From a bacterium (GTDB lineage Bacteria > Krumholzibacteriota > Krumholzibacteriia > LZORAL124-64-63), in NCBI GenBank assembly GCA_016706845.1, contig JADJIV010000022.1, forward strand, positions 412-64,411: a stretch of DNA of 64,000 nt, given 5' to 3'. The notes below the pieces were generated by a model. It did no database searches and was not told the DNA's origin. It worked only from the letters and a program-made list of their open reading frames with translations. How positions within the stretch are numbered: the stretch's first letter is position 1; every line of letters starts with the position of its first letter. This document shows, in pieces, positions 11,160 through 57,415 of this stretch. Made by a program: the position numbers and the translations under genes.

Positions 11160-11217
11160 CGAGTACCCGCCACACTCATCCTTGGCGCTCGCGACCCTCA
11201 CGAGGCTGGAGGCCCCG

Positions 11218-26208: not shown

Positions 26209-26231
26209 GTTCGTCTCCCGTGCTAAGGACT

Positions 26232-26990
26232 TCAGAGGGCGCCGCGCACGATCGCCAGGAAATCGTCGGCCTTCAGGCTGGCGCCGCCGATCAGGCCACC
26301 GTCGATGTCGGGCTGTCGCATCAGTTCGACCGCGTTGTCGGGCTTCATGCTGCCGCCGTAGAGGATCCGCATCCGGGCGGCCGCGTCGTTGCCCAGCAGC
26401 TCGGCCACGATGCCGCGCGAGAAGGCGTGGATCTCCTGGGCCTGCTGCGGGGTCGCCGTCTCGCCGGTGCCGATGGCCCAGACGGGCTCGTAGGCGAGCA
26501 CCAGGTTCACGGGCGTGGGCGCCGCGAGGCGCGGCAGCACGCCCGCGAGCTGGGCGCGGACCACGTCGCGCTCGCGGCCGACGCGGCGCTCCTCGATGCG
26601 CTCGCCGTAGCAGAAGATGGCCGTGAGGCCGGCCGCGTGGGCGCGGTCGATCTTGTGCACGAACTCGTCGTCGGTCTCGTGCTGGCGGGTCCGCCGCTCG
26701 GAGTGGGCGACGATGACGTGGGTGGCGCCGGCCTCGGCCAGCATCGGGGCGGCGACCTCGCCGGTGTGGGCGCCCGCGTCCTGCTCGGCGCAGTTCTGGG
26801 CGCCGAGCAGCACGGCGCCGCCCTTCAGGACGGCGGCCACGGCGGGGATCGAGACGAAGGGCGGGCAGACCAGCACCTCGGGCGGCCCGTCCAGGCCGGG
26901 CACGCCGAGGGCCACCTGGCGCGCCAGCTTCGTCGCGGCGGCGGGTCCGAGGTTCATCTTCCAGTTGCCGGCGACGAGCTTGCGGCGCAT
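26232..26990 (-). CDS. tpiA: Triosephosphate isomerase
   Basis: 252-aa ORF. MRRKLVAGNWKMN...VAHSERR...LAYEPVWAIGTG...ILYGGS. Confidence 0.93.
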   Translation of the reverse strand: MRRKLVAGNWKMNLGPAAATKLARQVALGVPGLDGPPEVLVCPPFVSIPAVAAVLKGGAVLLGAQNCAEQDAGAHTGEVAAPMLAEAGATHVIVAHSERRTRQHETDDEFVHKIDRAHAAGLTAIFCYGERIEERRVGRERDVVRAQLAGVLPRLAAPTPVNLVLAYEPVWAIGTGETATPQQAQEIHAFSRGIVAELLGNDAAARMRILYGGSMKPDNAVELMRQPDIDGGLIGGASLKADDFLAIVRGAL

Positions 26991-27059
26991 GCGGTCCTCC
27001 AGATCGGGTCGCCGCGGGCGACCCGGTTCGCGGTTCGGGCTTCGGGTTGTGGCCGCCGG

Positions 27060-27732
27060 TCAGCGGCGCCCGCGCAGCAGCAGCAGCCGGATCAGCTGGG
27101 TCACGGCCATCAGGGCCGGCGGCGACGTAGGTCAGCGCGGCGGCGTTGAGCACCGCGCTCACCTGCCCGCGCTCTTCCGTCGAGACGATGCCGTGGGTCG
27201 TCAGCAGCTGCACGGCGCGGTGGCTGGCGTCGAATTCGACCGGCAGGGTCACCAGCGTGAACACCGCCGCCACGGCGTAGACCAGGATGCCCACGTCCAT
27301 GAGCCCCGGCAAGTGGAACAGGAACCCGATGAAGAACAGGGGCATGGCCAGGGTGCTGCCGAAGCCGGCCACCGGCCAGATGGCCTGGCGGATCTGCAGC
27401 GGCGCGTAGCCGCGAGCGTGCTGCAGGGCGTGGCCCGCCTCGTGGCAGGCGACGACCAGCGCGGCGACGCTGCGGCCCTCGAAGTTGGACGCGCTCAGGC
27501 GCAGCACGCGCTTGCGGGGGTCGTAGTGGTCGGTCAGCTCGCCGTCGATGCGCTCGATGCCCACCGACGAGAGGCCGCCGGCGTCCAGCAGGCGGCGGGC
27601 CGCCTCCTGGCCGGTCAGACCCCGCGCGGCGGGCACGCGCAGGTATTTGGCATAGGTGGACTTGACCCGGTACTGCGCCCAGAGCGCGAAGACGACCACC
27701 GGGATCAGCAGCATGAACGTGACGTCGAACAT
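27060..27732 (-). pseudogene. YugP-like putative neutral zinc metallopeptidase (membrane). Frameshifted near its 3' end as assembled.
   Basis: MFDVTFMLLIPVVVFALWAQYRVKSTYAKY...VVACHEAGHALQHA (HExxH)...NAAALTYVAA. One extra G/C at about 27115-27120 hides the natural ending ALMAVTQLIRLLLLRGRR-TGA (stop 27060-27062). The frame then runs on into tpiA and the M16 gene, giving the 1377-aa track ORF. Confidence 0.75.
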
Positions 27733-27763
27733 GGTCGCAGCCTCCTCGAAGAACGCGCCCGGG

Positions 27764-28639
27764 TCACCCCAGGCGCGGCAGGAAGTCCAACAGCAGGCGG
27801 GCCATGCGGTCCCGCACCATCGCGCCCGCTTCTACGACATCCTGGTGCGACAGTTCCGGCTGCCCCACCTCCCGGGCGGGGTTGGTGATGCAGGACAGCC
27901 CGACCACGCGCACGCCCAGGGCCGCCAGCAGGGACGTCTCCGGGGCCGTCGACATGCCCACGGCGTCGCAGCCGGCCCGGCGCAGCATGCCGATCTCCGC
28001 CTTGGTCTCGTAGGCGGGGCCCCACATGCTGCCGTAGACGCCGGCGTGCAGGGGCACGCCCGTGGCGGCGCCGGCCGCGAGCAGGGCGCGGCCCAGGTCC
28101 TCGTCGTAGACGGCGTGCGGGCGCGCGCCGCGGCCCGGCGCCGCGGCCGGGGGGGCGGGATCGGCCAGCAGGCCGCGCAGCGGGTCCTGCAGGTGCAGGT
28201 CGAGGTGGTCGCGGATCACCATGAGGTCGCCGGGCCGGTAGAAGCGGTTCAGGCCGCCGGCGGCGTTGGTCACCACGACGGTGTCCACGTCCAGGCAGGC
28301 CAGCACCGCCGTGGGCAGCAGCAGCGCGTCCCAGGGCAGGCCCTCGTAGGGGTGCAGGCGGCCCTGCATGACGACCACGTCCCGGCCGCCGGCCCGGCCG
28401 GCCACCAGGCGCCCGCGGTGCTCGGCCACGGTGGTCGTCGCCCAGCCGGGGATCGCGGCGTAGTCGATCGCGCGCGGATCGCTCACCGCGTCGACGAAGT
28501 TGCCCAGTCCGCTGCCCAGGATCAGCCCGGTGCCGCCGGTGAAGCCGCGTCCGCGCAGCCACGCGGCGGCCTCCTGCACGCGGTCGCGCCACAGATCGCT
28601 GAGCAGGGCGGCGCGCCCGGTCGGGCGGTCCCCGCTCAT
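27764..28639 (-). CDS. Purine nucleoside phosphorylase (PNP/MTAP family, trimeric type)
   Basis: ATG 28639 within ORF 27764..28954. MSGDRPTG...GLILGSGLGNF...GRLHPYEG...VVTNAAGGLN...GPAYETKAE...GCDAVGMSTAPE. Confidence 0.85.
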   Translation of the reverse strand: MSGDRPTGRAALLSDLWRDRVQEAAAWLRGRGFTGGTGLILGSGLGNFVDAVSDPRAIDYAAIPGWATTTVAEHRGRLVAGRAGGRDVVVMQGRLHPYEGLPWDALLLPTAVLACLDVDTVVVTNAAGGLNRFYRPGDLMVIRDHLDLHLQDPLRGLLADPAPPAAAPGRGARPHAVYDEDLGRALLAAGAATGVPLHAGVYGSMWGPAYETKAEIGMLRRAGCDAVGMSTAPETSLLAALGVRVVGLSCITNPAREVGQPELSHQDVVEAGAMVRDRMARLLLDFLPRLG

Positions 28640-29733
28640 ACGACCTCCAGCTCGTCGAGGCCGAACTTGTCGCGCAGGGACAGGAAGGCGCCGGCGGCCT
28701 CGCGGATCAGGTCGGCCTTGACCGCCTGCGGCAAAAACGCGCTCTTGAAGCCGTTGAGCAGCAAGGTCTCGGTCTCCAGCAGGTTCAGGTCGAAGGCGTC
28801 CACGGCGCGGCGCAGCTCCGACAGCAGCGACGTGCGGGCGAACAGCGTGTTGTCCGTGTTGAGCGTCACGCGCAGGCCCAGTTCCAGGTACCGGCGCAGC
28901 GGGTGCTCCCCGACCGACGGGACCACGCCCGTCAGCACGTTGCTGGTCAGGCACAGCTCCAGCGGGATCCGCAGATCGTTCACATAGGCTAACAGATCCT
29001 CGTCCTCGTGCAACCTGGTGCCGTGCCCGATGCGGTTGGCGCCGCAGTAGTGCAGGGCCTGGTGGATGGACTCGGGGCCGAACCCCTCCCCGGCGTGGAT
29101 GGTCGCGGCGAGGTTGTGGTTCATGATGTGGTAGAACGCCTCGCGGTGGTCCTTGGCGGGGAAATCACGCTCCGTGCCGGCCAGGTCGAAGCCGACCACG
29201 CCCCGGCCCTTCCAGCGCACGGCCACTTCGGCCAGCTGCATCGACGCATCGGGGCTGATGGTGCGGATGCCCGTGACGATGATCCCGGCCTGCACGCCCG
29301 TGGTGGCGGTCGCCTCGTCCAGGCCGCGGCGCACGGCGGTCACGACCTCGTCCGGAGTGAGGCCCTCGTTCACGTGGCGCAGGGGGCAGAAGCGGACTTC
29401 CAGGTACCAGCAGCCGTCGGCGGCGGCGTCCTCGACCGTCTCGCGGGCGACGCGCGCCAGGTCGTCGGCCCGCTGCAGGACCTCGGTCGTGCGGTCGAAG
29501 AAGTTCACGAAGTGCTGCTGGCAGCTCTCGGGATCCACCGGGAAGTAGCGGGCGAGCAGGGCGCGGTCCCCGTCCGGCACCTCCCAGCCCCGGGCGCGGG
29601 CCAGCTCGCGGAAGGTGCCCGGCCGCAGGCTGCCGTCCAGGTGGCGCAGCAGGTCGGTCTTGGGCAACTCGCGCAGCACGTCGTCGGGGATGTGGGGCCC
29701 CCGCAGCAGGTCGCTCCGCCGTCCGACGCTCAT
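28636..29733 (-). CDS. add: Adenosine deaminase
   Basis: ATG 29733 within ORF 28636..30447. LPKTDLLRHLDGSL...GVVGFDLAGTE...ATIHAGEGFG...RIGHGTRL...LELCLTSN...VTLNTDN. The stop overlaps the PNP start (ATGA 28636-28639). Confidence 0.9.
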   Translation of the reverse strand: MSVGRRSDLLRGPHIPDDVLRELPKTDLLRHLDGSLRPGTFRELARARGWEVPDGDRALLARYFPVDPESCQQHFVNFFDRTTEVLQRADDLARVARETVEDAAADGCWYLEVRFCPLRHVNEGLTPDEVVTAVRRGLDEATATTGVQAGIIVTGIRTISPDASMQLAEVAVRWKGRGVVGFDLAGTERDFPAKDHREAFYHIMNHNLAATIHAGEGFGPESIHQALHYCGANRIGHGTRLHEDEDLLAYVNDLRIPLELCLTSNVLTGVVPSVGEHPLRRYLELGLRVTLNTDNTLFARTSLLSELRRAVDAFDLNLLETETLLLNGFKSAFLPQAVKADLIREAAGAFLSLRDKFGLDELEVV

Positions 29734-30419
29734 CGTGTCGCCTCCCGGTCGGCGCGGCCGCGCTTGGCCGCGTGCAGGGCGCGGATGTCGTCCAGCAGCG
29801 CGCGCTGGGCGTCGCGGTCGTCGCGCAGGTTGACCCGCTCGGTATCGATGACCCGCACCGGGCAGATCCCGCGGGCGCGGGGCACCCAGTCCTCGTAGGC
29901 CTCGTGCAGCTCGACGATGAAGTCGCGGGGGATCGTCTTCTCGCAGTCGCGGCCGCGGTCGCCGATGCGGGCCATGGCCACGTCCGGCCTGCAGCGCAGG
30001 TAGAGCACCAGGTCCGGCGGCCGCAGGAAGGAGATCATGTTCTGGAAGACCTCGCGGTAGTTCTCGTAGTCGCGGGTGTCCATGGCGCCGCGCCGGTGCA
30101 GCACCGGCGCGAAGATCTCGACGTCCTCGTAGATGGTGCGGTCCTGCACCGCGGAGGTGCCCCGCTCGATGATGTCCTTCTGGACCTCGAAGCGCTTGCT
30201 CAGGAAGTAGATCTGCAGGTGGAAGGCCCAGCGGGGCATGTCCCGGTAGTAGTCCTCGAGGTAGGGATTGTCGGCCACCGGCTCGTAGTAGGCGGGCCAG
30301 CCCAGCGCCTCGCCCATCATGGAGCAGACGGTCGACTTGCCCACGCCGATGTTGCCCGAGATGGAGAGGTAGAACGGCACGTCGTCGCGGCCGCCGGCGT
30401 TTTCTTGCTGTCCGGCCAT
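29730..30419 (-). CDS. Deoxynucleoside kinase (dAK/dGK/dCK family)
   Basis: 229-aa ORF. FYLSISGNIGVGKST (P-loop), YYEPVADNPYLEDYY, FHLQIYFL, QDRTIYED, LRCRPDVAMARIGDRGRDCE. The stop overlaps the add start (ATGA 29730-29733). Confidence 0.85.
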   Translation of the reverse strand: MAGQQENAGGRDDVPFYLSISGNIGVGKSTVCSMMGEALGWPAYYEPVADNPYLEDYYRDMPRWAFHLQIYFLSKRFEVQKDIIERGTSAVQDRTIYEDVEIFAPVLHRRGAMDTRDYENYREVFQNMISFLRPPDLVLYLRCRPDVAMARIGDRGRDCEKTIPRDFIVELHEAYEDWVPRARGICPVRVIDTERVNLRDDRDAQRALLDDIRALHAAKRGRADREATR

Positions 30420-30461
30420 GCGTCGTCCCCCCCGGGAGCCGCGTCACGGGCCGCGGCCGGC

Positions 30462-31623
30462 CTAGTTCGGCGGCGGCGGCGGCTCGTCGTTCAGCGACAT
30501 GTAGTGGTCGTAGGAGATGAAGCGGCGCACCGTGCCGTCGGCGCCCGAGAGCGTGAACACGTAGGCGCCGTAGTTGACGCCGCCGCCGGCGATCCGCACG
30601 TCGACCACGCCGATGGCGACCGGGTCGGAGGTCGGGCTGACGTCCCGGAAGGTCATCTCGTAGACGCCGGTGTCCGAGAAGATCTGCACGCGGTCGTTGC
30701 CGGTGTCCGCCACGAAGATCTTGCCTTGGCCGTCGCTCGCCAGGGCCGTGGGCGTGTCGAACTCCCCCGCCGCGTCGCTGGGGCCGCCCACCCAGGTGTC
30801 GTCCTCGCAGTCCTGCGCGTCGCCGAGGGTGTAGGCGGACTGCGGCTGGGGTTCGCAGTCCTCCAGGTCGAAGACGACGGCCAGGCCGCGCCAGGGGTGC
30901 GGCCCCTCGGGAGTAGCTGCGTTATCCGTCAGGACCGGCGTCGGGTCGAAGCGGGTGACCCAGTTGCGCGCGGTGTCGGCGTCGCAGATCAGCAGCATGC
31001 CCGACTCGTCGCTCAGCATGCCGGCGGGCACGTGGACGGCGCGCGTCGACGGGCCCTCGTCGCGGCAGAGGATGCCCATCGGGGCCATGTCGCCGCCCGC
31101 GTACCAGGCGAAGCGGTGGACCACGCCCGAATCGGGGTCGGCGAGGTAGAGGAACGTCTCGGCGGTCCGCAGCCAGCTCCGCCAGGCCGGTCCGGCTGGC
31201 GTAGAGGTGGGTGACCCGCTGCACGTCCGTCAGCGTCGCGGACCCGACCGGCGACAGGTCGGAGGTCTGGAACGCGCTGAGCCGGTTCGCGCCCGCCTCC
31301 CAGACGAAGACCAGGCGGGCGTCCTCGTCGGTGCAGACGGCGACCGGGTCGGCGAAACCGTCCACGCGCGAGAACTCCTCGTAGTCGAGGGTGCGCTTGA
31401 CGAGACTGCCGTCGGCGCCCACGACGAAGAGGCGGCCGATGGCCGCGACCATCTGCCGCGCGCCGGGGTCGACGAACAGCGTATCGACCGTGTAGGCGTT
31501 GGTCGAGAACAGGCCCACGGCCCGCGGCGCGGTGATCTTGACGCCGCAGCCGATGGCCGCGGCCGCCAGCAGCGCCGCCAGCAGCAGGCAGGCCGCGCGG
31601 CCGTCCGGGCGCGGGCGGATCAT
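30462..31623 (-). pseudogene. NHL-repeat lipoprotein, one frameshift as assembled
   Basis: ATG 31623 (MIRPRPDGRAACLLLAALLAAAAIGCG lipobox) reads in frame to ...VTHLYASRTGLAELAA. After about 31165-31170 the sequence continues in the frame of ORF 30462..31124: TAETFLYLADPDSGVVHRFAWYAGG...GKIFVADTGNDRVQIFSDTGVY (NHL repeat). Confidence 0.65.
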
Positions 31624-32657
31624 CGCCGCCTCCTTCCGTCGGGCAGCGGCGACAGGTCGATGGACAGGTAGTGGATCGTGCCGAAGGCGCCCATGTCGCT
31701 GATGGCGTAGTCGAGCCGGATCCGCCACTGGTCGCGCGCCAGGTTCACGCCGAAGCCGGCCGCGAGGCCGCCCTCGGCGCGGTTGGTCTCGTAGCCGCCG
31801 CGCAGCAGCAGGCGCTCGGCCAGGCCCAGCTCGGCGCCGCCGCGGAAGCTCTCGGAGGCGTCGGTGGGGTGGTGGAAGTCGGACGTCGTCAGCAGGGTCG
31901 TCCCGCTGCCCAGGCGCCAGGTGTAGGCCAGCCCGAAGCTGCCGGAGGTCGGCGCCTGGAAGCTCTGGAATTCCAGCGGCGTGGCGTAGCCGGGGCCCAG
32001 CGGCGGCGGCCTGCCGCCCGGCCGCAGGTCGGGGCCGAAATTGCGCACGGCGAAGCCGACGCGCATGTCCCCCAGGCCCGTGTAGTAGAGCGCGCCGAGG
32101 TCCATCAGCAGGCCGCGCACCTCGTAGTCGTCCAGGTTCTCCTGGTAGACCTTCGCGGTGCCGCCCAGCGAGAAGCGGTCGGTCATCGCCTTGGCGACGC
32201 TCGCCGCCAGCACGAACTGGTTGGCGTTGAAGGTGTCGCCGGTCCCCTCCTGGTGGAACTCGTCGGTGCGCGGGATCTCGCCCGAGCGCAGCATCGACCC
32301 CGACAGCGCGAAGCCGTAGTTCTGGCGGCGCCAGCTGCAGGAGGCGTACTCCAGGTCGATGTCGGCGGCGTAGGCCACGTGGGAGAAGAACAGGTTGGTC
32401 AGGCCGGGCGTGCGCATGAGCCCCGCGGGGTTCCAGTAGGCGGCCGGGCCGTCGACGGCGCAGGCGACGTAGGCGCGGCCGAGGCCGATCGCGCGCGCGC
32501 CGACCGGCAGGCGCAGGAACTGGGCGCCGGCGGTGCCCACGTTCTCGTCGCCGTAGAATTCGAGCACGTCCCCCGCATGCGCGGCGCCGGACAGGGCCAG
32601 CAGCAGCAGCGCCGCCGCCAGTGTCCGCGCTCCGGTCCTCTTCGCACGGGTCACCAT
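31620..32657 (-). CDS. PorV/PorQ-family outer-membrane beta-barrel protein (T9SS-associated family)
   Basis: C-terminal 345 aa of ORF 31620..35495. MVTRAKRTGARTLAAALLLLALSGAAHA signal. GTAGAQFLRLPVGARAIGLGRAYVACAVDGPAAYWNPAGL is the hallmark N-terminal block of PorV/UPF0164-type barrels. Alternating beta-strand pattern to the C-terminus. Confidence 0.72.
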   Translation of the reverse strand: MVTRAKRTGARTLAAALLLLALSGAAHAGDVLEFYGDENVGTAGAQFLRLPVGARAIGLGRAYVACAVDGPAAYWNPAGLMRTPGLTNLFFSHVAYAADIDLEYASCSWRRQNYGFALSGSMLRSGEIPRTDEFHQEGTGDTFNANQFVLAASVAKAMTDRFSLGGTAKVYQENLDDYEVRGLLMDLGALYYTGLGDMRVGFAVRNFGPDLRPGGRPPPLGPGYATPLEFQSFQAPTSGSFGLAYTWRLGSGTTLLTTSDFHHPTDASESFRGGAELGLAERLLLRGGYETNRAEGGLAAGFGVNLARDQWRIRLDYAISDMGAFGTIHYLSIDLSPLPDGRRRR

Positions 32658-35551
32658 GAGAAGCTCACCCCCAGCAGGAGCATGCGGGGATCCTCGATGT
32701 AGCTGGGGTCGATCTGACTCTTGACGTACTCGCGCGAGTAGGTGTTCAGGACCGGCCCCTCCTCGCCGTACCAGTCGGCGTAGTTGTCGACCCAGCCCGG
32801 GTTGAGGTCCCCGACCTGGTAGCCCGTGCCCGTCCAGGGGTTGATCCGCCGGTAGTTCTTGTGGTCCAGGACGTTGCGGCCCTCGAAGAAGAGGGTCAGC
32901 CGCTGCCGGCGCGACAGGTCCCAGGTCTTGTTGAAGCGCAGGTTGAGCGACTGCTTCGTCGGCCCCAGTCCCGAGTAGGGGTCGCCGTAGACGTACTCGC
33001 CGAACACGGGGTTCTCCGGGTCGGCGAAGGCGCGCGGCGTGTAGCGCTGGCCGGCCTCGGCCTGGAAGAGCAGGTTGAGGCTCCAGTCGGCGGGCACGGT
33101 CCATCCGAAGATGCGGGGGCGGTCCTTCCGCTCGACGGTGAAGTCGAGGTTGAAGGAGACCTTCCAGGGCTTGTCCCAGAGCAGGGGGTTGCGCTTCAGC
33201 CCGCCGATGCTGGCGGTGGGCGTGTAGGCCTCGTCGTAGACGGCCAGGAGGTAGGCCTCGTCGGCGTCGCTGTTGGTGCCGGTGCTGCGCGAGAGCTCGA
33301 GGCTCGCCGAGCCGCTGAGCCACCGCGTGGTGCGCTTGATGACGCTGAGCTCCACGCCCAGGCTGCGCGCCGAGTCCCCGTTGAAGTAGCGCACGGGCTC
33401 GATGGTGACCGTGCCGGTGTCGTTCGGGTCCGGGGTCTCGTCGGCGCCGATGTTCACCGGCTTCATCTGGACCGACTTGGCGTAGCCGTAGATGTCGCGG
33501 TTGAAGAAGGTCACGCCCAGGCTCCACAGCCCGGAGAACTCGTGCTGGACGCCGGTCTCGTACTCCACGGTGATCTTGGGGTCGAGGTTCGGGTTGCCCA
33601 GCAGCTGGATCTTGGTCGCCGTCTGCGACTGCAGCTGCGGGTAGACGTACGCGTAACGCGGCCACTGCGAGAAGTGGCCGTAGTTGAAGAAGAACTTGTC
33701 CTTCTCCGTCACCGGGAAGCTGACCCCCAGGCGCGGCGAGACGCGCATCTTCCAGCTGCGCAGGAAGAACTCGACGGTGTTGTCGTAGAACTCGTCGGCC
33801 ATGTCGTCGAAGATGAACAGGTAGTCCTCGGAGTGGTCCATGACGTACTCGACTTCGCGGCCCGGCGCCCAGGCGTCGAGGCGGATGCCGGCGTTCACGA
33901 TCATGCCCTTGTAGTTGACCGTATCCTGGAAGTAGGCGGCGCCCACGATGGGGTGCACCTTGAAGATGTCCTCCTTGATGCCCAGCTTGCCGGGCGGCGG
34001 CGAGCCCAGCGAGGACTGCAGGTCCACCAGTTGCATCTCGGTGAAGTTCAGCTCCAGGCCCGTCTTGAACTGGTTGGTCTCGTTGGCCACCCAGGCGTAG
34101 GTCGTCTTCAGGTTCCACGACTCGGAGTAGTGGTCGTGCCAGCGGTCGGCCGAGCCGAAGGCGAGACCCGCGGGCGACGGCGGGGAGTTGATGAGCGGGT
34201 AGGTCGTGAAGTCGTCGTTGCCGTTGATGTTGGCGTGCTGGCGCGAGAAGTTGCGGCCGAGGTTGACCTCGAAGTAGTCCTTCTCCCCCATCACCCAGCG
34301 GTAGTAGAGCTGGCTCAGGATGCTCTCGTTGGTGAAGACGAGGTAGCGGTCCAGGTTGTCCTGGAAGGGCCGCGGGTAGCCCTCGCCCGCCAGCTCGAAG
34401 CCCTGGCTGATCTCGAACTGCCGGTTCACCGTGAAGTTGAGCTTGTGCCGGGGATTGATGGCCCAGGTCCACTTCGCCATGCCGTTCCACTCGTTCTGCT
34501 GGCGCGGGGCGACCCAGTTGAAGTCGTACAGGGGCGAGGTGAGCCGCCGCGTGCGGGAGTAGATCGGCAGGGGGCCGTCGCGCACGTCCATCGAGCCGGA
34601 CAGCAGCAGGTAGGTCTTGCCGGGCACGTCCAGCCCCAGCGCGCCGAGGGCGCCGCTCAGGGGGTCCGGGCCCGAGAGGGAGGCCTTGACCACGTCGATG
34701 TTCTGGGAGCGGTCCAGCTCGTAGGGCTGCCGCCAGTCCGGCGCGGCGGAGGCGTCGACGCCGCCCCAGTGGTCGCGCTTCCAGCTGGCCTTGCCGCTCC
34801 AGCGCTCGCTGCCCTCCTTGGTGGACACGTTCACCACGCCCGAGACGGCCTGCCCGTACTCCGCGTTGAAGCCGCCGGTGAGCACCTCGATCTCGTTGAT
34901 GATCGAGGGGTCGATGGCGTAGCCGTAGCCGCCGCCGGCCAGGGGGTCGTTGACGCTGACGCCGTCGATGATGAACTGCGTGTCGTCGGCGCGGCCGCCG
35001 CGGATGTGGATCTCGTTGTCCTGCAGCGTCACGCCGGGCTTCTGCGCGATCATCTCGACCAGGTTGTCCAGCGGCAGGGCGTCCATCTGCTCCGACGTCA
35101 GCATGTGCGAGGAGCCGGTGCGCTCGATCTCGATGAGCCGGCGCTCCGCCGTGACCTCGATGGCGTCGGTGTAGATCGCCTCCACCGCCAGGCGGAACTC
35201 GATCTCGGCCACCTCGCCCGGGGCCACCGTCACGGTCTCGGAGCCCAGGGCGTAGGAGATGTAGGACGCGCGCACGGTGTAGGTGCCCGGGCGCAGCCCG
35301 GTCAGGTAGAACTGGCCGTCCTGCAGCGCGATCGTGCCGATGCTCGAGCTGGCGATGTAGACGTTCGTGTAGGCCAGCGGCTGCCCGTCCTCCGCGTCGC
35401 GGACGAAGCCCTTGATCATGGCCGGCCGCTGCGTATCGGAGCCGGGGCGCAGGCCCTGCGCCGCGGCCGGGACCACGACGGCGAGCAGCGCGCACGCCAG
35501 CGCGAACGACAGGAGCGGCGCCGCGCGCCGCGGCTGCAGCAGGGCGCTCAC
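32651..35551 (-). CDS. TonB-dependent-receptor-like outer-membrane protein (CarboxypepD_reg domain + plug + large barrel)
   Basis: GTG 35551 within ORF 32651..36274 (VSALLQPRRAAPLLSFALACALLAVVVPAAAQG). IKGFVRDAEDGQPLAYTNVYI...LTGLRPGTYTVRASYISY (CarboxypepD_reg). DALPLDNLVEMIAQKPGVTLQDNEIHIRGGRADDTQFIIDGVSVNDP (plug). The C-terminus LLLGVSFSW ends in an aromatic residue. Confidence 0.85.
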   Translation of the reverse strand: MSALLQPRRAAPLLSFALACALLAVVVPAAAQGLRPGSDTQRPAMIKGFVRDAEDGQPLAYTNVYIASSSIGTIALQDGQFYLTGLRPGTYTVRASYISYALGSETVTVAPGEVAEIEFRLAVEAIYTDAIEVTAERRLIEIERTGSSHMLTSEQMDALPLDNLVEMIAQKPGVTLQDNEIHIRGGRADDTQFIIDGVSVNDPLAGGGYGYAIDPSIINEIEVLTGGFNAEYGQAVSGVVNVSTKEGSERWSGKASWKRDHWGGVDASAAPDWRQPYELDRSQNIDVVKASLSGPDPLSGALGALGLDVPGKTYLLLSGSMDVRDGPLPIYSRTRRLTSPLYDFNWVAPRQQNEWNGMAKWTWAINPRHKLNFTVNRQFEISQGFELAGEGYPRPFQDNLDRYLVFTNESILSQLYYRWVMGEKDYFEVNLGRNFSRQHANINGNDDFTTYPLINSPPSPAGLAFGSADRWHDHYSESWNLKTTYAWVANETNQFKTGLELNFTEMQLVDLQSSLGSPPPGKLGIKEDIFKVHPIVGAAYFQDTVNYKGMIVNAGIRLDAWAPGREVEYVMDHSEDYLFIFDDMADEFYDNTVEFFLRSWKMRVSPRLGVSFPVTEKDKFFFNYGHFSQWPRYAYVYPQLQSQTATKIQLLGNPNLDPKITVEYETGVQHEFSGLWSLGVTFFNRDIYGYAKSVQMKPVNIGADETPDPNDTGTVTIEPVRYFNGDSARSLGVELSVIKRTTRWLSGSASLELSRSTGTNSDADEAYLLAVYDEAYTPTASIGGLKRNPLLWDKPWKVSFNLDFTVERKDRPRIFGWTVPADWSLNLLFQAEAGQRYTPRAFADPENPVFGEYVYGDPYSGLGPTKQSLNLRFNKTWDLSRRQRLTLFFEGRNVLDHKNYRRINPWTGTGYQVGDLNPGWVDNYADWYGEEGPVLNTYSREYVKSQIDPSYIEDPRMLLLGVSFSW

Positions 35552-37020
35552 GGCAGGACCACCCCCAGTTCCTGCGAGAGCAGGGCTCGCACGACCGCCA
35601 GCCCGCTGGCCGGCACGCAGTAGTCCATCTGCACCGTCACGGTCACCGTGTTGGCGAAGGTCCCGGACGACGTGGGCGGGTTGCGCACCGCCACGAAGGG
35701 ACGGCTGGAGGGGCGGCCATTGATGTACCGGTGGTACTCCATCCGGTAGAGGTACTTCGTCGTGCTGGAGTCCGCGCCGGCCATGCCGACCCCGGCGGAG
35801 ATGTTGCCGGTGAAGAACATCTCCGGCAGTCCAGCCTTCAGCGGCATGCCCTTCTTGGTGGACGGGATGTAGAAGGTGGGCTGGTCCGGGGTGGCCCGGA
35901 AGCCCAGCGTGTTGGTGACGAAGCTGGGCGGCGGCGCGCCCGTCACGCCGATCAGGGCCGGCGAGACCAGCAGCAGCTTGCCCGGCTCGTAACCGGCGGG
36001 GGGCTGTACGTACTGGGCCACCAGCTCCGCCACGGCGGCCAGGCGCGGCGAGGCGCTGGCGCCGGTGTACCAGAACACCGCCGGGAACTGGCGCAGGGTC
36101 TCGAGCAGGACCCACGTCCGGTCGGGCAGCCCGTCGGAGATCTCGTAGAGGGACCAGCCGCCCGGCCCGTAGATCGAGTCCATGACCGCGTGGTAGAACG
36201 CGCGGTCGAAGTTGCCGACGCTGTCGTCCACCAGCAGCACGTCGCTGAGCACGGGCCGGGCCTCCCAGGTCCACGCGAAGCGCGTCGTGGCGTCGGCCTC
36301 GTCGCTGACCCGGATGGTCAGCGTGCGTTCGCCCGGCGGGATCTGGCCGTGCAGGTCGATCTCGAACGTGCCGAGGGCGGGGTCGTTGAGGCGCTTGATC
36401 ACCGGGCGCAGGGCGGGGTCCGCGCCGGGCTCGCCCTCCGGCAGGGGCGCCAGCAGGGTGTCCGCCGTGTCCAGGTGGTAGACGACCGAGTCGTCCATCG
36501 TCACGTTGCCGTCGAGGTCCAGGGCGAAGAGGCGGAAGTCGGCCGAGCTGTAGCTCCAGAAGAACGTGTCGTAATCGCTGACGAAGTTGATCACCGGCGG
36601 GAAGTTCCGCAGCGGGATGTACTGGCTGACCGTGTCGCTGGAGGCGCCGCGGTCGTCGCGGCAGGCCACGTGGATCATGGCCTGCGCCCGGCCGGTGTCG
36701 TCGGTCTCGAAGGTCATGGTCGTGTCGGTGGCGGTGGTCGTGATCCAGGGGGCGACGATGCCCTCCTCGGTCTCGATCGACACGTAGTACGCCTCGACGA
36801 AGCCGTCCTCGTCGGTGCCCGACCAGTGGAAGGTGCGGCTGAAGTAGCTCGTGGGGTTCAGCACGCCCCCCTCGGGCGGGGTCACGAAGATGCGCGCGAC
36901 CGGGCGCCGGTTGGGCAGCGAGTCGGGATCGAAGGCCTCGTTGCCGCAGCCGGCCGCCAGCGCGCAGAACAGCGCGGCGAGGGACAGGGCCAGCGTCACG
37001 GCGAGCGGCGGCGACCTCAT
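35548..37020 (-). CDS. Hypothetical lipoprotein (490 aa), no family recognised
   Basis: MRSPPLAVTLALSLAALFCALAAGCGNE lipobox. Contains FHWSGTDEDGFVEAYYVSIE-type Ig-like segments. Its start overlaps the upstream stop (ATGA 37017-37020) and its stop overlaps the TBDR-like GTG (GTGA 35548-35551). Confidence 0.6.
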   Translation of the reverse strand: MRSPPLAVTLALSLAALFCALAAGCGNEAFDPDSLPNRRPVARIFVTPPEGGVLNPTSYFSRTFHWSGTDEDGFVEAYYVSIETEEGIVAPWITTTATDTTMTFETDDTGRAQAMIHVACRDDRGASSDTVSQYIPLRNFPPVINFVSDYDTFFWSYSSADFRLFALDLDGNVTMDDSVVYHLDTADTLLAPLPEGEPGADPALRPVIKRLNDPALGTFEIDLHGQIPPGERTLTIRVSDEADATTRFAWTWEARPVLSDVLLVDDSVGNFDRAFYHAVMDSIYGPGGWSLYEISDGLPDRTWVLLETLRQFPAVFWYTGASASPRLAAVAELVAQYVQPPAGYEPGKLLLVSPALIGVTGAPPPSFVTNTLGFRATPDQPTFYIPSTKKGMPLKAGLPEMFFTGNISAGVGMAGADSSTTKYLYRMEYHRYINGRPSSRPFVAVRNPPTSSGTFANTVTVTVQMDYCVPASGLAVVRALLSQELGVVLP

Positions 37021-38969
37021 TTGATGATCACCAGCTTTCCGCGTTCCACCCTGCCGGTGGCCAGATCCTCCACGGCGAAGATGTAGAGGCCCGAGGCGAT
37101 GGCGCGCACCGGTTCGCTCAGGATGTCCCAGGGTTCGAGGCCCGAGGCCGGATCGTCGTGGTGCAGGGTCTTGACCAGGTCGCCGTTCAGGGTGAAGACC
37201 TTGATGACGCAGCGCGCCGGCAGGCCGGTGAACCAGAGCTTGCGGCCCAGCTCCAGCTCGCCCTGCTGGTCGTCGAAGCGCGAGGCGACCCGGTAGGGGT
37301 TCGGGAAGACGCCCGGGCCCCGGCCCTCGCCCAGCGGCCGCGGCGCCGGGCCCGGGTAGACCAGCTCGGCGTTCTCGTAGTAGCCGCTCTGGAATTCCGG
37401 CAGGCTGGAGACCACGTCGGGGGCGGAGAAGGACACCACGGAATACCAGTAGCCGAAGCCGTCGAGCAGCGAGGTGTCGCGGAAGCGCCGCAGGCCGTCG
37501 GTGCCCAGCGGCGGCAGCCCGGTGTCGAAGCCGATGCCGTCGATCTTGTCGAACTGGGCCACCATGGTCGACTGCTCGTAGGGGTCGCCGCCGAAGGACT
37601 CGCCCTGGAAGCGGAAGATGCGGTAACCCTGGAAATCGGGCCGCAGGGTGATGATGCTGACGTGGTGCTCGGGGAGCGGCGCGGGTCGTCCGGCAGCAGG
37701 GGCACGGGCTCGCCCTGGTCGTCCAGGGCGACGGAGTCGCCGGGAGCCCAGGCCAGCACGACCGTGTTGTCCTCGTACTCCAGCGACAGCCGCGGCGAGG
37801 GCGGGCCGGTCGGGATCGCGAAGCCCGAGTCGTAGGCCACCTGCGCCACCTTGGCGTTGGCCAGCAGGTTCAGGGAGTCGGCGCCGCAGACCACGGCGTA
37901 GGTCACCTGCAGGGTGTCGCCGGGCGCGAGGTTGGGGAACGGGCCGGTGGCGAGCAGGCCGTTCCAGTTGCCCGCATAGGCGAAGTCGCCGCCGGCGTCG
38001 AAGTCGCCGTTGGAGAGCATCTGGTACTTGCCGGGCAGCGGCTGGCCGTCGACCTCGTAGGCGTCGTCCTGGGCAGGCACGGAGCGGAAGCGCCAGCTGT
38101 TGTAGGTGACCGGCGGCAGGCCCGGGGCCGGCGACGGGGCCGGGTCGGAACCCAGCAGGCGCGCCCCGATCCAGGAGGTGGCCATCTCGTCCTCGCCGTC
38201 GTCGTCGTGCTCGTACATCATCCAGAGGTCCGGGGTCGTCGGCGACGTCGCCCGGGCGCAAGGCGCCGTTGACGTCGTCGTAGAACTGCCAGGTGCGCGG
38301 CGCGCCGCTGCCGTAGCCGGAGGGCACGGTGATGGTCGTGTTGCCGACGGTGGTGTCGTTCCAGTAGCCGACGTACACGTCGCGCAGCTCGCTGCCCGAA
38401 TCGTTGATGATGCGGTAGTCGAGGATGACGAAGTCGTCGGCGTACGAGCTGCTCCAGGACAGCGCCCGCAGGATCACGTTGACGAACAGCGGCGTGTGGT
38501 TGCCGGTCTCGTCGTACTTGTCGTCGGTGAAGTAGCACTCGATGTGCTCGGTGGCCAGGGCGGCGGGGTTGTAGTCGTCGCTGTTCTGGGTGTTGGACCA
38601 GATCTGCACGTCTTCGGTCAGGGAATCGGTGAACTCGCGGATGTCCTCGCCGTCGGTCAGGCTCGAGGCGTCCTGCGCCCCGGTCGAGACGCGCCGCAGC
38701 CCCTCCGGGGTCATGGCGCCGACCCAGAGGCCGCCGATGAACAGGTGCTCGACGTGGCTGTTGCTGGGGTACTCGCACGAGGGCTGGTAGGGGCTGGAGA
38801 GCCCGTTGCCGACGTAGCCGAGGTTCGTGATCGTCAGGCGGACCAGGCCGGCGCCGGTCACCAGTTCCGTGCGCGGCACGGCGCGGGCCGGCGGCGCCGA
38901 GCCGAGACACAGGGCGCCGCCGAGGGCGACGGCCAAGGCGGTGCGGGTGATGCAGCCGGGGCGGAGCAA
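37017..38969 (-). pseudogene. Secreted protein of unknown function with a T9SS/FlgD-type C-terminal domain. Two compensating frameshifts as assembled.
   Basis: TTG 38969 after a GGAGG SD. MLRPGCITRTALAVALGGALCLGSAPPARA signal. LTITNLGYVGNG...EYPSNSHVEHLFIGGLWVGA. The sensible sequence leaves this frame at about 38229-38236, continues in the frame of ORF 37187..38221 (DLWMMYEHDDDGEDEMATSWIGARLLG...YAVVCGADSLNLL...), and returns at about 37682-37690 (PLPEHHVSIITLRPDFQGYRIFRF...). C-terminus: KVFTLNGDLVKTLHH...ASGLYIFAVEDLATGRVERGKLVIIK. Confidence 0.65.
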
Positions 38970-39126
38970 AGGGGGGGCCTCCGGGAGAAGGGGTGCGGTC
39001 CCCGTGCAGGGGATGCGATCCCCGGGGCGGCGGCCGTCGGGCCCGGCCGGTGCACGGTGGATCCGTGACGGACGAAACTAGCCCCCGGAGGCCATTCGTG
39101 TCAATGATTTGCGGGTTTTTCGCACT

Positions 39127-39156
39127 TTGACGCCGCGCCCGGGCCGGCTCTATACT
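39127..39156 (+). promoter_or_regulatory. Putative sigma-70 promoter (TTGACG-18 nt-TATACT) for the SGNH hydrolase gene
   Basis: cactTTGACGccgcgcccgggccggctcTATACTgcc, 35 nt upstream of GTG 39191, which is preceded by AAGGA. Confidence 0.4.
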
Positions 39157-39190
39157 GCCACCGCGACCCGGAACCCCACGAAGGACGGCC

Positions 39191-40437
39191 GTGAGAAGAC
39201 GCCTGCGCCCCCTCGCCCTCGCCTGCGCCGCCCTGCTCGCCACCCTGGTGGCCTGCGAGCTGGCGGTGCGCTACCTGCAGGACACGATCCCTCCCCCCGA
39301 CGGCACGCCCTACCGCAACGACCCCGACTGCGGCTACGTCCTGAATCCCGGCGATCCGGACCTCTTCCCGCCGGACGACGACCGCCACGTCAACGCCCTG
39401 GGCTTCCGCGACCGCGAGCGCGCCGTCCCGAAGCCGCCCGGGCTGTGGCGGCTGGTCGGCATCGGGGATTCGTTCGTCTACGGGGACGTGCCGATCGCCT
39501 GCAATTTCCTGCGGGTTTTAGACGACTCGCTGCGGGCGCTGCCCGCCGCCGAGGCCATGATCGCCGGCCTGCCCGGCTGGGACGTGCGCAACGCCGTGGG
39601 CCTGATGCGGGGCAAGGGGGCGGACTGGCGCCCCGACGTGGCCCTGCTCTGCTTCTCGATCGACAGCGACGTGACGGGCATCCCCATCCCCGGCGCCGTC
39701 TTCCAGGGCAACCTGCACTTCACGGGCTCGCGGGAGCCGCTGCTGAACCTGCTGCGCAAGAGCCGCCTGTTCGTGCTCGCCGAGCAGCTCTACGGCGTCC
39801 GCACGGTCAACGCCCTGCGCCGCTGGCGGGCCGCGGCCCGCTTCGGCGGCGCGGCGGCCGCCCCCCGCACGCCTCGCCGGCCGCCCGACGTCCCGGTCGC
39901 CGCCGCGGACGCGCCCGAGGGCGCGGTCCATCCCGGCGCGCCGGTTTTCCCGGGATGTGGGGCGACCCGGCGGACCCCGCGCGGCGCCTTCCCCTGAAAC
40001 CGGAGTTCCTGCGCCGGCGGGTGGAGAACCTGCCCCTCTACCAGGCGCAGACGCCGCCCGAGGTGGACCGCTGGTGGGAGCAGGCCGAACGGCAGGTGCT
40101 GGAATTCGACGCCGCCTGCCGTGGGTCCGGCGCGCGCTGCGTGCTGCTGATCGCCCCCTCGGAGATCCAGGTCGACCCGGTCGTGCAGGAGTTGACCCTG
40201 AAGCGGGCGCCCCTGCCGGCGGAGGCCTACGACTTCGCGGCGCCGTCGCGCCGGCTGCGCGCCTTCGCCGAGGCCCGCGGCATCGCCTGCATCGAACCTC
40301 TCGACGCCCTGCGCGCGGCGCAGCAGAGCAGCGGCCTGCGGCAGTACATCCCCAACAACGGCCACTGGAGCGTGCCCGGCAACGCGGTCGTCGCCCGCGA
40401 GGTCGCGGCGTCGCTGGCGCCGCTAGGCGGATCCTGA
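39191..40437 (+). pseudogene. SGNH/GDSL-family hydrolase (membrane-anchored), one frameshift as assembled
   Basis: ORF 39191..39997: MRRRLRPLALACAALLATLVAC...WRLVGIGDSFVYGD (GDS block I). The C-terminal part lies in the frame of ORF 39109..40437: ...ARCVLLIAPSEIQVD...QYIPNNGHWSVPGNAVVA (block V-like). The frames must switch somewhere in the low-complexity stretch at about 39800-39960. Confidence 0.6.
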
Positions 40438-41717
40438 GGTCCTTCCCGCGGAATCCCCCGCCAGCCGCGGCAGCCACGGCAGCAGAGCCAAGCCCGGCAA
40501 CCCACACACCAGCACCAGCAGGAAGAAGGCGCGGTAGCCCACCGCCGTCTGGATCGCCCCGCTGGCCATGCCCGGCAGCATCATGCCCAGCGCCATCAGG
40601 CCCGTCGCGATCGCGAAGTGGGAGGTGCGGTGCTCGCCGCGCGAGACGCGCATCAGCACGACCATGAACGCGGTGGTGCCCAGGCCGTAGCCCAGCTGCT
40701 CCAGGGCGACCAGCGGGTAGGCCACCGCCGGGCCGGGCTGCGCCCAGGCCAGGTAGAGGTACGCGACGTGCGGCACGTTGAGCGCCAGCGCCAGCGGCCA
40801 CAGCAGGCGGCGCAGCCCGTAGCGCCCGATGAGCCAGCCCCCGACCACGCCGCCCACGACCAGGCAGCCCAGGCCGATGGTCCCGTAGGCGAACCCGACC
40901 TGCTCCGTCGTCAGACCCAGGCCGCCCTTTTCCCTGCCGTCCAGCAGGAAGGGCGCGGCCAGCTTCAGCAGCAGGGCCTCGCCCAGGCGGTACAGCAGGA
41001 TGAAGGCGACGATCACGCCCGCCCGGGGCTGGCGCAGCCACGCCTCCGCGATCTGCAGCCAGCCCGCGGCGGCGGCCGGCCGGCCGGTCCCGGCGACGGC
41101 CGCGCCCGCCGGCCGGTCGCTGGGGGCCGCGGCAGCGCGGCGCGGTGGTAGAGCCACATCACCCCGTAGAAGGCCGCCGCGCCGGCGAACACGGTCGACC
41201 AGGCGCCCGCGGCGCCGCGCGGCCCGCCCTCGAGCCGCCCGGCCACGCTCACCAGCAGCCCCGAGCCGAAGATCATCGCCCCGCGGTAGAACAGCGTGCG
41301 CACGCCAACGAAGTACGCCTGCGCGCGCTCGTCCAGCGCGTGGAGGTAGAACCCGTCGGCCGCGATGTCGTGGGTGGCCGAGACCAGCGCCGCCAGCGTG
41401 AAGGCGGCCAGCGACCAGGCGAAGTAGCCCGGCGCGACGATCGCCGCCGCCACGGCCGCGAGGCACGCCGCCTGGGCGGCCTGCGTGCCGAGGATCCAGG
41501 CGCGCTTGGTCGCGCGCGTGTCCACCAGCGGTCCCCAGAGCATCTTCAGGACCCAGGGCAGGTAGAGCAGGCTGGTCCACAGCGCGATGCTGGCGTTGTC
41601 CACGCCCAGCTTCTTGTAGAGGATCACCGAGACCGTGTTGACCAGGATGTAGGGCACGCCCTCGGCGAAGTAGAGCGAGGGCACGAAGATCCAGGGCGAG
41701 CGCTGCGTTCCCGGCAC
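40423..41717 (-). pseudogene. ampG: AmpG-family muropeptide MFS permease, one frameshift as assembled
   Basis: GTG 41717 after GGGAGG. MPGTQRSPWIFVPSLYFAEGVPYILVN...LLYLPWVLKMLWGPLVD...GVMWLYHRAAL. After about 41135-41145 it continues in the frame of ORF 40423..42030: AAAPSDRP...WLRQPRAGVIVAFILLYRLGEALL...FAIATGLMALGMMLPG. Confidence 0.75.
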
Positions 41718-41896
41718 GATGCCTCCCGGGCGGTGGACGGTGCGGGCCGATCTGCTGAGCGCTCAGGGCGGGCGACTTGGCGGGAACTGGCAACCGCGAT
41801 CTGCGCCACTCCCCGCTTGCCAAACCCGGCCGCCCCGTTTCCAATGGGCCCACGACGCGCGGGCCGTTCCGTCCGCCGGCGATCCGGAGGTGAGGC

Positions 41897-44192: not shown

Positions 44193-44207
44193 GCCCTGGA
44201 TCCCTTC

Positions 44208-57311: not shown

Positions 57312-57415
57312 GTCGTCCCTCTTGGTTCGGGATCCCGCAGCATATCACCGTGATTGGGTTATTTAGGATATATTCAATCCTGTATATCCGCTCTCATTGG
57401 CGGTCGGTGACCGTG

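Follow-up and report, generated by a model that had tools for sequence, protein, structure and literature searches.

A translationally coupled five-gene outer-membrane module of Krumholzibacteriota, possibly a TonB-dependent uptake complex with a surface partner exported by type IX secretion

Introduction

What kind of surface apparatus would require that a secreted cargo-like protein, a TonB-dependent transporter (TBDT), an outer-membrane barrel of the PorV/PorQ family and two lipoproteins be encoded in overlapping reading frames? The question is raised by five consecutive minus-strand genes, here denoted g1 to g5, which occupy positions 30462-38969 of a 64,000-nucleotide stretch of DNA from a member of Krumholzibacteriota (assembly GCA_016706845.1, contig JADJIV010000022.1, positions 412 to 64,411 of the forward strand); this whole stretch is referred to as the window, and positions are those of the window unless another locus is named. 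An earlier note on this DNA, made from the sequence alone, had proposed that the quintet encodes a dedicated machine for cargo tethering or uptake at the cell surface. On the evidence presented here, we hold with moderate confidence that the general architecture is that of a TonB-dependent uptake complex in which a partner exported through a type IX secretion system (T9SS) is tethered by a PorQ-like barrel. In the Fibrobacteres-Chlorobi-Bacteroidetes (FCB) group, the two hallmarks of the outer membrane are TonB-dependent transport and the T9SS, which have so far been studied as separate machines; the module unites a transporter, a T9SS-type cargo and a PorQ-like putative anchor at the gene level, through overlapping frames.

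Organization and integrity of the locus

The module consists of the following genes, with the C-terminal domain (CTD) of g1 given on a line of its own (lengths in amino acids, aa).

37017..38969, minus strand: g1, a secreted protein of ~650 aa, with the frame broken by two single-base indels
37020..37313, minus strand: CTD of g1, the last 98 residues (GVFPNPYR...GKLVIIK), assigned by homology to T9SS sorting domains
35548..37020, minus strand: g2, a 490-aa lipoprotein of no named family, with a lipobox and an AlphaFold2 model
32651..35551, minus strand: g3, a 966-aa TBDT, assigned by Pfam domains and a TonB box
31620..32657, minus strand: g4, a 345-aa outer-membrane barrel of the PorV/PorQ family (FadL-like), assigned by NF033709
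30462..31623, minus strand: g5, an NHL-repeat lipoprotein of ~386 aa, with the frame broken by a +1 indel near 31165

All four start/stop overlaps listed in the earlier note were verified exactly where it had placed them: ATGA at 37017-37020, GTGA at 35548-35551, ATGGTGA at 32651-32657 and ATGA at 31620-31623. When the overlapping start codons are taken as the gene starts, plausible signal peptides are obtained for g2 to g5.

The reading frame switches twice in g1 and once in g5, owing to three single-base indels, +1 near 38231 and -1 at 37674 in g1 (the latter in a run of four C in the window vs. five in relatives) and +1 near 31165 in g5, each located within a short run of C or G. In the public record, the 650-aa g1 product (P0122) is translated straight through the shifts. 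The presence of three frame-breaking indels within 8.5 kb, along with an annotated product that spans the shifted frame, could be taken to indicate that the frameshifts are real and that the module is decaying and nonfunctional in this genome, which we consider highly improbable. All three indels are absent from three relatives (L001, L002 and L004; 91.5-95% DNA identity), they are the sole unpaired indels in the alignment with L001 (94.8% DNA identity over 8.6 kb), and both g1 and g5 are single open frames in all relatives; the shifted stretches also retain the high third-codon-position GC that is typical of real coding sequence. Across 19 kb (26000-45000) aligned to L001 and L002 (94-95% identity), about seven frame-changing single-base indels are private to the window (at about 43378, 41124, 39952, 38231, 37674, 31165 and 27118), and the four outside the module strike unrelated genes, among them those for an SGNH hydrolase (39191-40437) and an MFS transporter (40423-41717). 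Because the indels are window-specific and similar ones occur in unrelated genes of the window, the three module frameshifts are, judging from these alignments, probably assembly or sequencing errors, with a pattern that looks like long-read assembly error, and the reading of g1 and g5 as real pseudogenes was rejected on the same grounds. The locus-tag style of the source record suggests, we assume, the same project as the "tig"-named assemblies L002 and L048. Given the scattered indels, readings of the whole contig that are based on open reading frames need frameshift repair; the repaired g1 and g5 proteins were used for the analysis described below.

Conservation of the module within Krumholzibacteriota

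Homologs of g2 were searched for and recovered from at least 78 species-level genomes, the informative labels of which are mostly Krumholzibacteriota; the Fibrobacteraceae, Latescibacterota and Gemmatimonas labels attached to many carriers are taken to be mislabels. In every sufficiently long locus of the 78 genomes, except for six loci that lack g1, the order g1-g2-g3-g4-g5 is maintained on one strand. The overlaps are maintained as well, with the start codon overlapping the upstream stop at 68 of 71, 71 of 73, 58 of 65 and 55 of 62 junctions (~93% of 271), and an independent gene caller applied to a 4.7-Mb genome yielded identical overlaps of 4, 4, 7 and 4 nt. The median identity to the window proteins is 59% for g1, 41% for g2, 64.5% for g3, the most conserved of the five, 62% for g4 and 45% for g5. 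The earlier note had made its reading depend on synteny in relatives; the quintet is conserved phylum-wide, and its core recurs in other phyla. Chance adjacency of the five genes is refuted by this synteny and by the permuted gene orders described below.

The transporter g3 and the barrel g4

After frameshift repair, the profile searches that the earlier note had recommended placed g3, g4 and g5 in families and left g1 and g2 without one. The g3 protein had been described as combining a CarboxypepD_reg domain, a plug and a barrel of the TonB-dependent type, and all three were found in Pfam, namely CarboxypepD_reg (56 bits), Plug (52.9 bits; cut-off, 23.9) and OMP_b-brl_3 (47.5 bits; cut-off, 27). 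A TonB box, DAIEVTAER, starts at 35167, between the N-terminal domain and the plug; its position is constant in all relatives, and the classical form Q-E-I-V-V-V-G-E is encountered in other phyla. With the plug, the barrel and the TonB box in place, g3 qualifies as a TBDT. Against the SusC/RagA model (TIGR04056; cut-off, 368 bits), g3 scored 47.1 bits through its N-terminal domains only, and none of its NCBIfam matches names PorF.

The assignment of g4 to the PorV/PorQ family proved sound: its match to NF033709 covers positions 1-323 of the 326 in the profile with 159.8 bits, above the curated NCBIfam cut-off of 90, and g4-type homologs from other phyla reach 167 and 223 bits. It remains below the thresholds of the equivalog models for PorQ (NF033711; 90.5 bits, cut-off 220), its best equivalog match, and PorV (NF033710; 39.7 bits, cut-off 250), and aligns to the structure of Flavobacterium johnsoniae PorV (6h3i_F) with E = 1.1e-5. 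By these profile scores, g4 is a member of the PorV/PorQ family that is an ortholog of neither PorQ nor PorV. By analogy with PorQ, it is presumed to be the anchor for the g1 CTD.

The FadL fold of the PorV/PorQ family raises a different possibility, namely that g4, rather than anchoring g1, forms a channel of the FadL type through which a hydrophobic or amphipathic substrate would pass, with g1 being an ordinary, cleaved T9SS cargo that is merely co-expressed. Faint matches of several homologs to Toluene_X, a Pfam model of the FadL family, and the second FadL-like gene that precedes the transporter in a Calditrichota locus are compatible with such a role. We nevertheless deem it very unlikely, given that the score of g4 is well clear of the threshold for the PorV/PorQ family, that the CTD-containing end of g1 is highly conserved, which would be unexpected if it were cleaved, and that g1-like and g4-like genes stay adjacent despite changed gene order.

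The g1 family and its C-terminal domain

The g1 protein consists of a signal peptide, an N-terminal β-supersandwich (about residues 35-380), two FN3-like domains and the T9SS-type CTD. This organization is apparent in the AlphaFold2 model of the g1 ortholog P0121 (95% identical; pLDDT 78), in which the supersandwich, the two FN3-like domains and a C-terminal β-sandwich follow one another in sequence. In Foldseek searches, the N-terminal domain resembled the N-terminal, noncatalytic domains of glycoside hydrolases of families 116, 94 and 65 (GH116, GH94 and GH65; E about 1e-6, TM 0.25-0.29 when normalized by the whole query), and the β-supersandwich of a polysaccharide lyase was also among the matches. 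Direct scans detected no Pfam or NCBIfam family in g1, and a search of the g1 family profile against the sequences in the Protein Data Bank (PDB) found no relative, with neither PorZ nor PorU being recovered. The family is nonetheless large: a profile search retrieved 8,524 representative clusters at E <= 1e-3, of which 471 reached E <= 1e-30; sampled members contain no Pfam domain besides occasional CTD matches, and the named ones come from Marinimicrobia, Calditrichota, Coatesbacteria, Stahlbacteria and Krumholzibacteria. In two Krumholzibacteriota genomes, second, divergent g1-family paralogs lie a few kilobases from the module (L024, 9-2813, plus strand; L027, 4-1356, minus strand).

The CTD required a more sensitive comparison. 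Taken alone, the CTD of the window protein is below all thresholds of the hidden Markov models (HMMs) and does not match a sorting domain (TIGR04183 or PF18962) even at E <= 10; it yields weak matches to the CTD ends of the PorZ (E = 0.0086) and PorU models, the former covering profile positions about 690-743 of 757 with 14.5 bits against a cut-off of 260. Among the CTDs of 39 g1 orthologs, 35 matched the PorZ model (best E = 2.7e-7), 19 the PorU model and 13 TIGR04183 (best E = 4.3e-5). An hhalign comparison of the g1 CTD with canonical Por_Secre_tail domains gave 96.8% probability with E = 2e-10, and the AlphaFold2 model of the ortholog consists of β-strands throughout residues 553-648. By the profile comparisons, this region is best read as a divergent T9SS-type CTD, homologous to sorting domains and with two insertions, in accord with the first description of g1 as a ~650-aa signal-peptide protein that ends in such a domain.

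Two further properties bear on the fate of this CTD. Its best model matches, PorZ and PorU, represent the two CTDs that are known to remain uncleaved, and PorQ anchors PorZ (PMC10947112). The best-conserved part of g1 consists of its last 220 residues, the CTD among them, with 63-72% identity where g2 is at ~40%, a degree of conservation that is not expected of a disposable signal destined to be cleaved off.

The lipoproteins g2 and g5

Both g2 and g5 possess a signal peptide followed by a lipobox with its cysteine, AAGC in g2 (Cys codon at 36948) and AIGC in g5 (Cys codon at 31548), and qualify as lipoproteins. Lipobox-like motifs are present in 63 of 72 g2 orthologs and 51 of 58 g5 orthologs; in g2, Cys25 is invariant among 25 homologs, and the C-x-N-D-P-F-D-P motif immediately behind the lipidated residue is conserved.

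The earlier note could name no family for the 490-aa g2, and none emerged from Pfam or NCBIfam; among 25 homologs scanned, there were two weak SusE matches and nothing else, and the 126 g2 homologs found are, without exception, annotated as hypothetical. The AlphaFold2 model (pLDDT 83.8) contains two Ig/FN3-like domains and a C-terminal α/β domain. Foldseek searches with the whole model returned only generic FN3/Ig tandems, and no solved relative of the α/β domain was found by sequence profile. In two loci, g2 homologs are enlarged to about 890 aa; in one of these (L158, 8777-11446), an inserted Ycf48/BNR-type β-propeller (PSII_BNR, 108 bits) accounts for the size, and the other (L127, 11946-14639) is enlarged likewise.

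The description of g5 as an NHL-repeat lipoprotein of ~385 aa was borne out by a match to PF01436 (28.1 bits; cut-off, 20) and by similarity to solved NHL propellers, with E = 1.4e-24 and four matched stretches for the NHL domain of TRIM71. No SusD match was obtained for g2 or g5 in the Pfam and NCBIfam scans.

The module beyond Krumholzibacteriota

Genes of the g1 family adjoin g3- and g4-type genes in Marinimicrobia, Calditrichota, Coatesbacteria and other lineages. In 80 metagenome loci fetched around distant g1-family members with 31-42% identity to one of them, searches with the HMMs of g2 to g5 revealed the same downstream order in nearly every sufficiently long locus. Eight further loci were sampled from other branches of the g1 family, and a g3-type transporter is located beside the g1-like gene in all eight, and a g4-type barrel in seven. 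Several loci have altered arrangements:

L161 (Coatesbacteria): TBDT-exbB-exbD-exbD-tonB-g1like-PorVlike
L163: TBDT-g1like-PorVlike-GWxTD-exbB-exbD-exbD-tonB
L160: permuted, g1-g3-g4-g5-g1-g2-X
L167: g3-g4-g5...g1

Thus, in two other lineages (L161 and L163), the trio of TBDT, g1-like and PorV-like genes is joined by exbB-exbD-exbD-tonB. The survival of the gene set through rearrangement indicates a functional unit rather than an inherited neighborhood.

Two of the loci contain additional, foreign-looking genes that leave the order of the module intact. In L108 (14010-16236), two genes, one of which resembles a DNA methyltransferase by sequence, are located between gene X (described below) and g2, and in L131 (11953-13467), a long tandem-repeat, coiled-coil-like protein is encoded between the g1-like gene and X.

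At 10945-13836 (plus strand), the window encodes a canonical T9SS cargo, an M36-like metallopeptidase of 963 aa in which a choice-of-anchor J domain accompanies a Por_Secre_tail above its threshold (25.5 bits, cut-off 23), and at 52116-53795 (plus strand) a 560-aa protein with a subthreshold FlgD-Ig-like CTD that is a probable T9SS cargo. In L165, 10 kb separate the module from an upstream gene (1-192) whose 2108-aa product contains SprA_N and represents the T9SS translocon. Taken together, these genes indicate T9SS cargo both in this genome and in related lineages.

Two other window genes are of note. One, at 2132-3871 on the plus strand, is clearly that of subunit B of DNA topoisomerase VI, an uncommon enzyme among bacteria, with a score of 702 bits against the equivalog model, and the other, at 54615-57344 on the minus strand, encodes a 909-aa Ser/Thr protein kinase fused to a TolB-like β-propeller region.

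Neighboring genes and the possible substrate

Downstream of g5, after 42 nt, the same strand of the window carries a nucleoside-salvage block:

27764..30419, minus strand: the salvage block as a whole
29730-30419, minus strand: deoxynucleoside kinase (dNK)
28636-29733, minus strand: adenosine deaminase (ADA)
27764-28639, minus strand: purine nucleoside phosphorylase (PNP)

The three genes are joined to one another by ATGA overlaps, and no terminator-like site was found on the minus strand from g1 through the PNP gene; the dNK and A_deaminase Pfam assignments were made on an orthologous locus. Downstream, on the same strand, dNK is present in 49 of the 57 Krumholzibacteriota loci with enough sequence, and the salvage block is probably linked to the five-gene module functionally. 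In the permuted locus L160, genes for RpiB and an adenosine deaminase lie directly upstream of the module.

Other neighbors point in the same general direction. In other lineages, 64 loci have an extra gene, which we denote X, inserted between g1 and g2; it encodes a T9SS cargo with a Por_Secre_tail above the cut-off. The body of X matches the model of the ExeM/NucH extracellular endonucleases (NF033681) with E = 5e-13 to 4e-6 and 25-49 bits, short of membership in that family (300 bits), and the match covers only the noncatalytic N-terminal positions, about 1-215 of 546; X also contains a CBM_56-like segment. Another T9SS cargo gene, U, is located directly upstream of g1 in 23 loci; the sequence motifs of its product are those of the fold shared by endonucleases, exonucleases and phosphatases (EEP), and it matches the MnuA nuclease weakly. 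Elsewhere, LTD-domain proteins or proteins combining an OB-fold with a phospholipase D (PLD)-type domain are encoded downstream. For example, directly downstream of the module in L165 (21446-22214) is the gene for a 1035-aa protein with matches to OB-fold, PLDc_2 and purple-acid-phosphatase-N models, the N terminus of which matches the X profile; this protein is therefore a candidate secreted nuclease or phosphodiesterase.

From these neighborhoods, we tentatively suggest that the most likely substrate of the subfamily that contains g2 and g5 is material derived from extracellular nucleic acids, in the form of oligonucleotides, nucleotides or nucleosides. A number of observations weigh against this suggestion. 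In at least 13 loci, g5 and dNK are not contiguous, with unrelated genes (for a chemoreceptor, a CPBP protease and other products) lying in between, and the salvage genes could be merely long-standing neighbors. The five window genes encode no nuclease domain; X is absent from the Krumholzibacteriota loci, save L077, and U is absent from all of them. The classification of U as an EEP-type protein is itself tentative, as it relies on motifs and subthreshold matches: the EEP fold was not recognized by Pfam, and a PDB profile search matched EEP enzymes with E = 0.22 to 0.98. The N-terminal fold of g1 is associated with carbohydrates and does not resemble nucleic-acid binders. Finally, in L164, a g1 relative is encoded among genes for LacI, GH65, GH63 and M60/NPCBM proteins, from which it follows that a glycan could also be the substrate of the window module; the g1 family probably differs in substrate from locus to locus.

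Some of these observations would fit a rival proposal in which the architecture is the same and the imported material would be a polysaccharide or glycoconjugate, the module being a non-Bacteroidota analog of a polysaccharide utilization locus (PUL) with the salvage genes as mere neighbors. In addition to the similarity of the N-terminal domain of g1 to the supersandwiches of GH116, GH94, GH65 and the polysaccharide lyase and to the glycan-related surroundings of the g1 relative, this proposal can draw on the weak SusE matches in two g2 homologs, the BNR/Ycf48-type propeller in some g2 homologs and the CBM_56-like segment in X. We regard it as unlikely, however, because the Krumholzibacteriota loci that were examined contain no glycoside hydrolase, lyase or sugar-catabolism gene within 10 kb, the recurrent neighbors are related to nucleic acids in several independent arrangements, and the Foldseek similarity involves a noncatalytic fold with low TM values.

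A possible function of the module

We propose that g1 to g5 form a single outer-membrane complex for the capture and import of a nutrient, with translational coupling providing for fixed proportions of the subunits. In this complex, g3 would be the TonB-energized import channel, and g1 would be a substrate-binding or substrate-processing surface protein exported by the T9SS. The CTD of g1 would be retained, neither cleaved nor linked to a lipid, and would dock noncovalently on g4, as PorZ does on PorQ; g2, with its Ig-like and α/β domains, and the NHL propeller g5 would serve as accessory binders. Together, g1 and g4 would take the position that the SusD lipoprotein occupies in the SusC/D systems of Bacteroidota, and imported nucleic-acid material would feed the adjacent dNK, ADA and PNP salvage enzymes. 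Beyond the operon structure and its conservation, the targeting signals, the families and folds and the cross-phylum co-occurrence of g1, g3 and g4 that were computed here, the physical assembly of the complex, the docking of a retained CTD on g4, the exposure of the lipoproteins at the cell surface and the nature of the substrate are what we infer.

The tethering of g1 rests on the analogy with PorQ-PorZ and on the pattern of conservation and similarity of the g1 CTD, and import is favored by the conserved TonB box, by tonB-exbBD genes next to the transporter in some lineages, by how large the g1 family is and by the diversity of its catabolic neighbors. The cargo-tethering or uptake hypothesis of the earlier note has thus been strengthened, by the TonB box, the adjacency of exbB-exbD-exbD-tonB, the permuted gene orders and the conservation of the CTD-containing end of g1. 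Two observations count against the proposed architecture. First, the CTD of the window protein is below all HMM thresholds. Second, six Krumholzibacteriota loci that form a divergent clade (L055, L056, L058, L068, L070 and L071; 10001-16700 each) keep g2 to g5 and have no g1-like gene within 10 kb; in this clade, which retains the downstream dNK except in L071, g1 may be encoded elsewhere or replaced.

The main rival to the uptake complex is a role in the T9SS machinery itself, as a late attachment unit equivalent to the TonB-type barrel PorF, PorQ (g4) and PorZ (g1), the job of which would be to anchor cargo or to deliver surface glycolipid for many T9SS substrates. The affinity of the g1 CTD to that of PorZ and of g4 to PorQ would be readily accommodated, as would the phylum-wide spread of the module, the conservation of g1, g3 and g4 at a housekeeping level (median identity 59-65%) and the T9SS cargo genes that frequently flank it. 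There is also functional precedent: in Porphyromonas gingivalis, PorF is a TonB-receptor-like barrel that is required for secretion and has unknown partners (PMC5445135, PMC12704123), porF mutants resemble porQ and porZ mutants (PMC12704123), and in Cytophaga hutchinsonii, the PorF homolog CHU_1606 was co-purified with PorV (PMC8564354). Several features of the module speak against this role, which we consider improbable. The body of g1, a supersandwich with FN3 domains, is unlike PorZ, and the cut-off of the PorZ model is not reached, either by the window CTD or by the best ortholog; no sortase is encoded; the TonB box and the adjacent tonB-exbBD genes argue for active import; and the large g1 family, with paralogs in differing contexts, including one glycan locus, is better suited to substrate-specific systems. 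PorZ (PDB 5M11) has two β-propellers, and PorF presumably has a CarboxypepD_reg/OMP_b-brl_3-type architecture like that of g3.

If the uptake complex is real, it represents a second way to build a lid or capture apparatus at the surface of a TBDT, without SusD, and assigns a role to a large unannotated family, g1, with thousands of clusters, and to the orphan g2 lipoproteins. Its carriers span several phyla that are uncultured yet abundant in environments such as wastewater, sediments and the ocean. Were the link to nucleic acids also true, the module would provide a route for scavenging extracellular DNA or RNA, which constitute a major store of phosphorus, nitrogen and carbon, in lineages that are represented by genomes only. 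A still broader scenario, which we put forward as a doubtful extension, is that the g1 family is the counterpart of SusD in the non-Bacteroidota phyla of the FCB group, forming the substrate-capturing lids of TBDTs, that the g2/g5 subfamily is the first TonB importer of extracellular nucleic-acid fragments, and that PorF, PorQ and PorZ of the Bacteroidota T9SS derive from an uptake unit of this kind or continue to act as one.

Comparison with known systems

The locus corresponds to none of the known types that the earlier note had named as alternatives. A canonical SusC/D PUL was rejected because there is no SusD and g3 fails the SusC cut-off, and the PorU/V/Q/Z attachment complex because there is no sortase and no match to the bodies of PorU or PorZ, and the PorQ, PorV and PorZ equivalog cut-offs are not reached. 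The literature searched on Krumholzibacteriota, Marinimicrobia and Calditrichaeota in connection with the T9SS, PorV or TonB contained no description of the locus or of the g1 or g2 families, the locus is likewise undescribed in the papers searched on extracellular DNA with TonB and the T9SS, and the database names of g1- and g2-family proteins are all "hypothetical protein". A protein termed PorV2 was encountered in a single T9SS paper, which concerns the F. johnsoniae translocon.

With the SusC/SusD utilisomes, the module shares a TBDT with a CarboxypepD_reg domain that is co-encoded with surface binding proteins, Ig-like accessory lipoproteins (SusE and SusF in those systems) and catabolic genes for the imported substrate nearby. 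In contrast to them, it has no SusD, and its transporter scores 47 bits against the 368 required of SusC/RagA; the main partner, g1, is a protein with a T9SS CTD rather than a lipoprotein; and a PorV/PorQ barrel is included. The carriers of the module also differ, being Krumholzibacteriota and other uncultured phyla, as does the implied substrate, which is derived from nucleic acids.

The nucleases of the ExeM/NucH type and the nucleoside-scavenging loci, exemplified by the ribose/nucleoside "rus" PUL of Bacteroides thetaiotaomicron, resemble the module in the neighbors with the ExeM/NucH N-terminal domain or with LTD, EEP or PLD folds and in the adjoining nucleoside-salvage enzymes, whereas the five genes of the window lack a nuclease domain. 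To our knowledge, no TonB-dependent importer of nucleic-acid fragments that is built in this way has been described.

Among the systems associated with the T9SS, type B CTD cargo with PorP/SprF barrels (SprB-SprF and PG1035-PorP) shows that a dedicated, adjacent barrel can anchor a cargo (PMC10947112, PMC12704123). In those systems, however, the barrel is PorP/SprF as opposed to PorV/PorQ, the CTD is of type B as opposed to the divergent type A, PorZ-like CTD of g1, and no transporter is involved. The PorQ-PorZ pair of P. gingivalis comes closer, as it combines a PorV/PorQ barrel with a CTD surface protein, and the CTD of PorZ is retained as an anchor (PMC10947112); the g1 CTD is most similar to that of PorZ, and the best equivalog of g4 is PorQ. 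In contrast to this pair, g4 and g1 fall short of the PorQ and PorZ equivalog cut-offs, g1 differs in the fold of its body, the module encodes neither the PorU sortase nor the PorV partner, and the two genes are translationally coupled to a TBDT and two lipoproteins.

A further likeness is that of PorF (PG0534) and CHU_1606, in which a ~90-kDa TonB-type barrel is associated functionally or physically with PorV-family proteins. The earlier note was aware of no described complex coupled in this way, and none was found in the literature searched, with the qualification that the association of a PorV-family protein with a TonB-type barrel has a partial precedent in these two proteins. The difference is that no conserved operon joining porF to porQ or porZ is described in the T9SS papers cited here, and the module offers a concrete, testable hypothesis for why barrels of the PorF type are linked with PorQ and PorZ in Porphyromonas. 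The parts of the module, the TBDT, the PorV-family barrel, the T9SS CTD and the NHL propeller, are all known; their obligatory combination is new.

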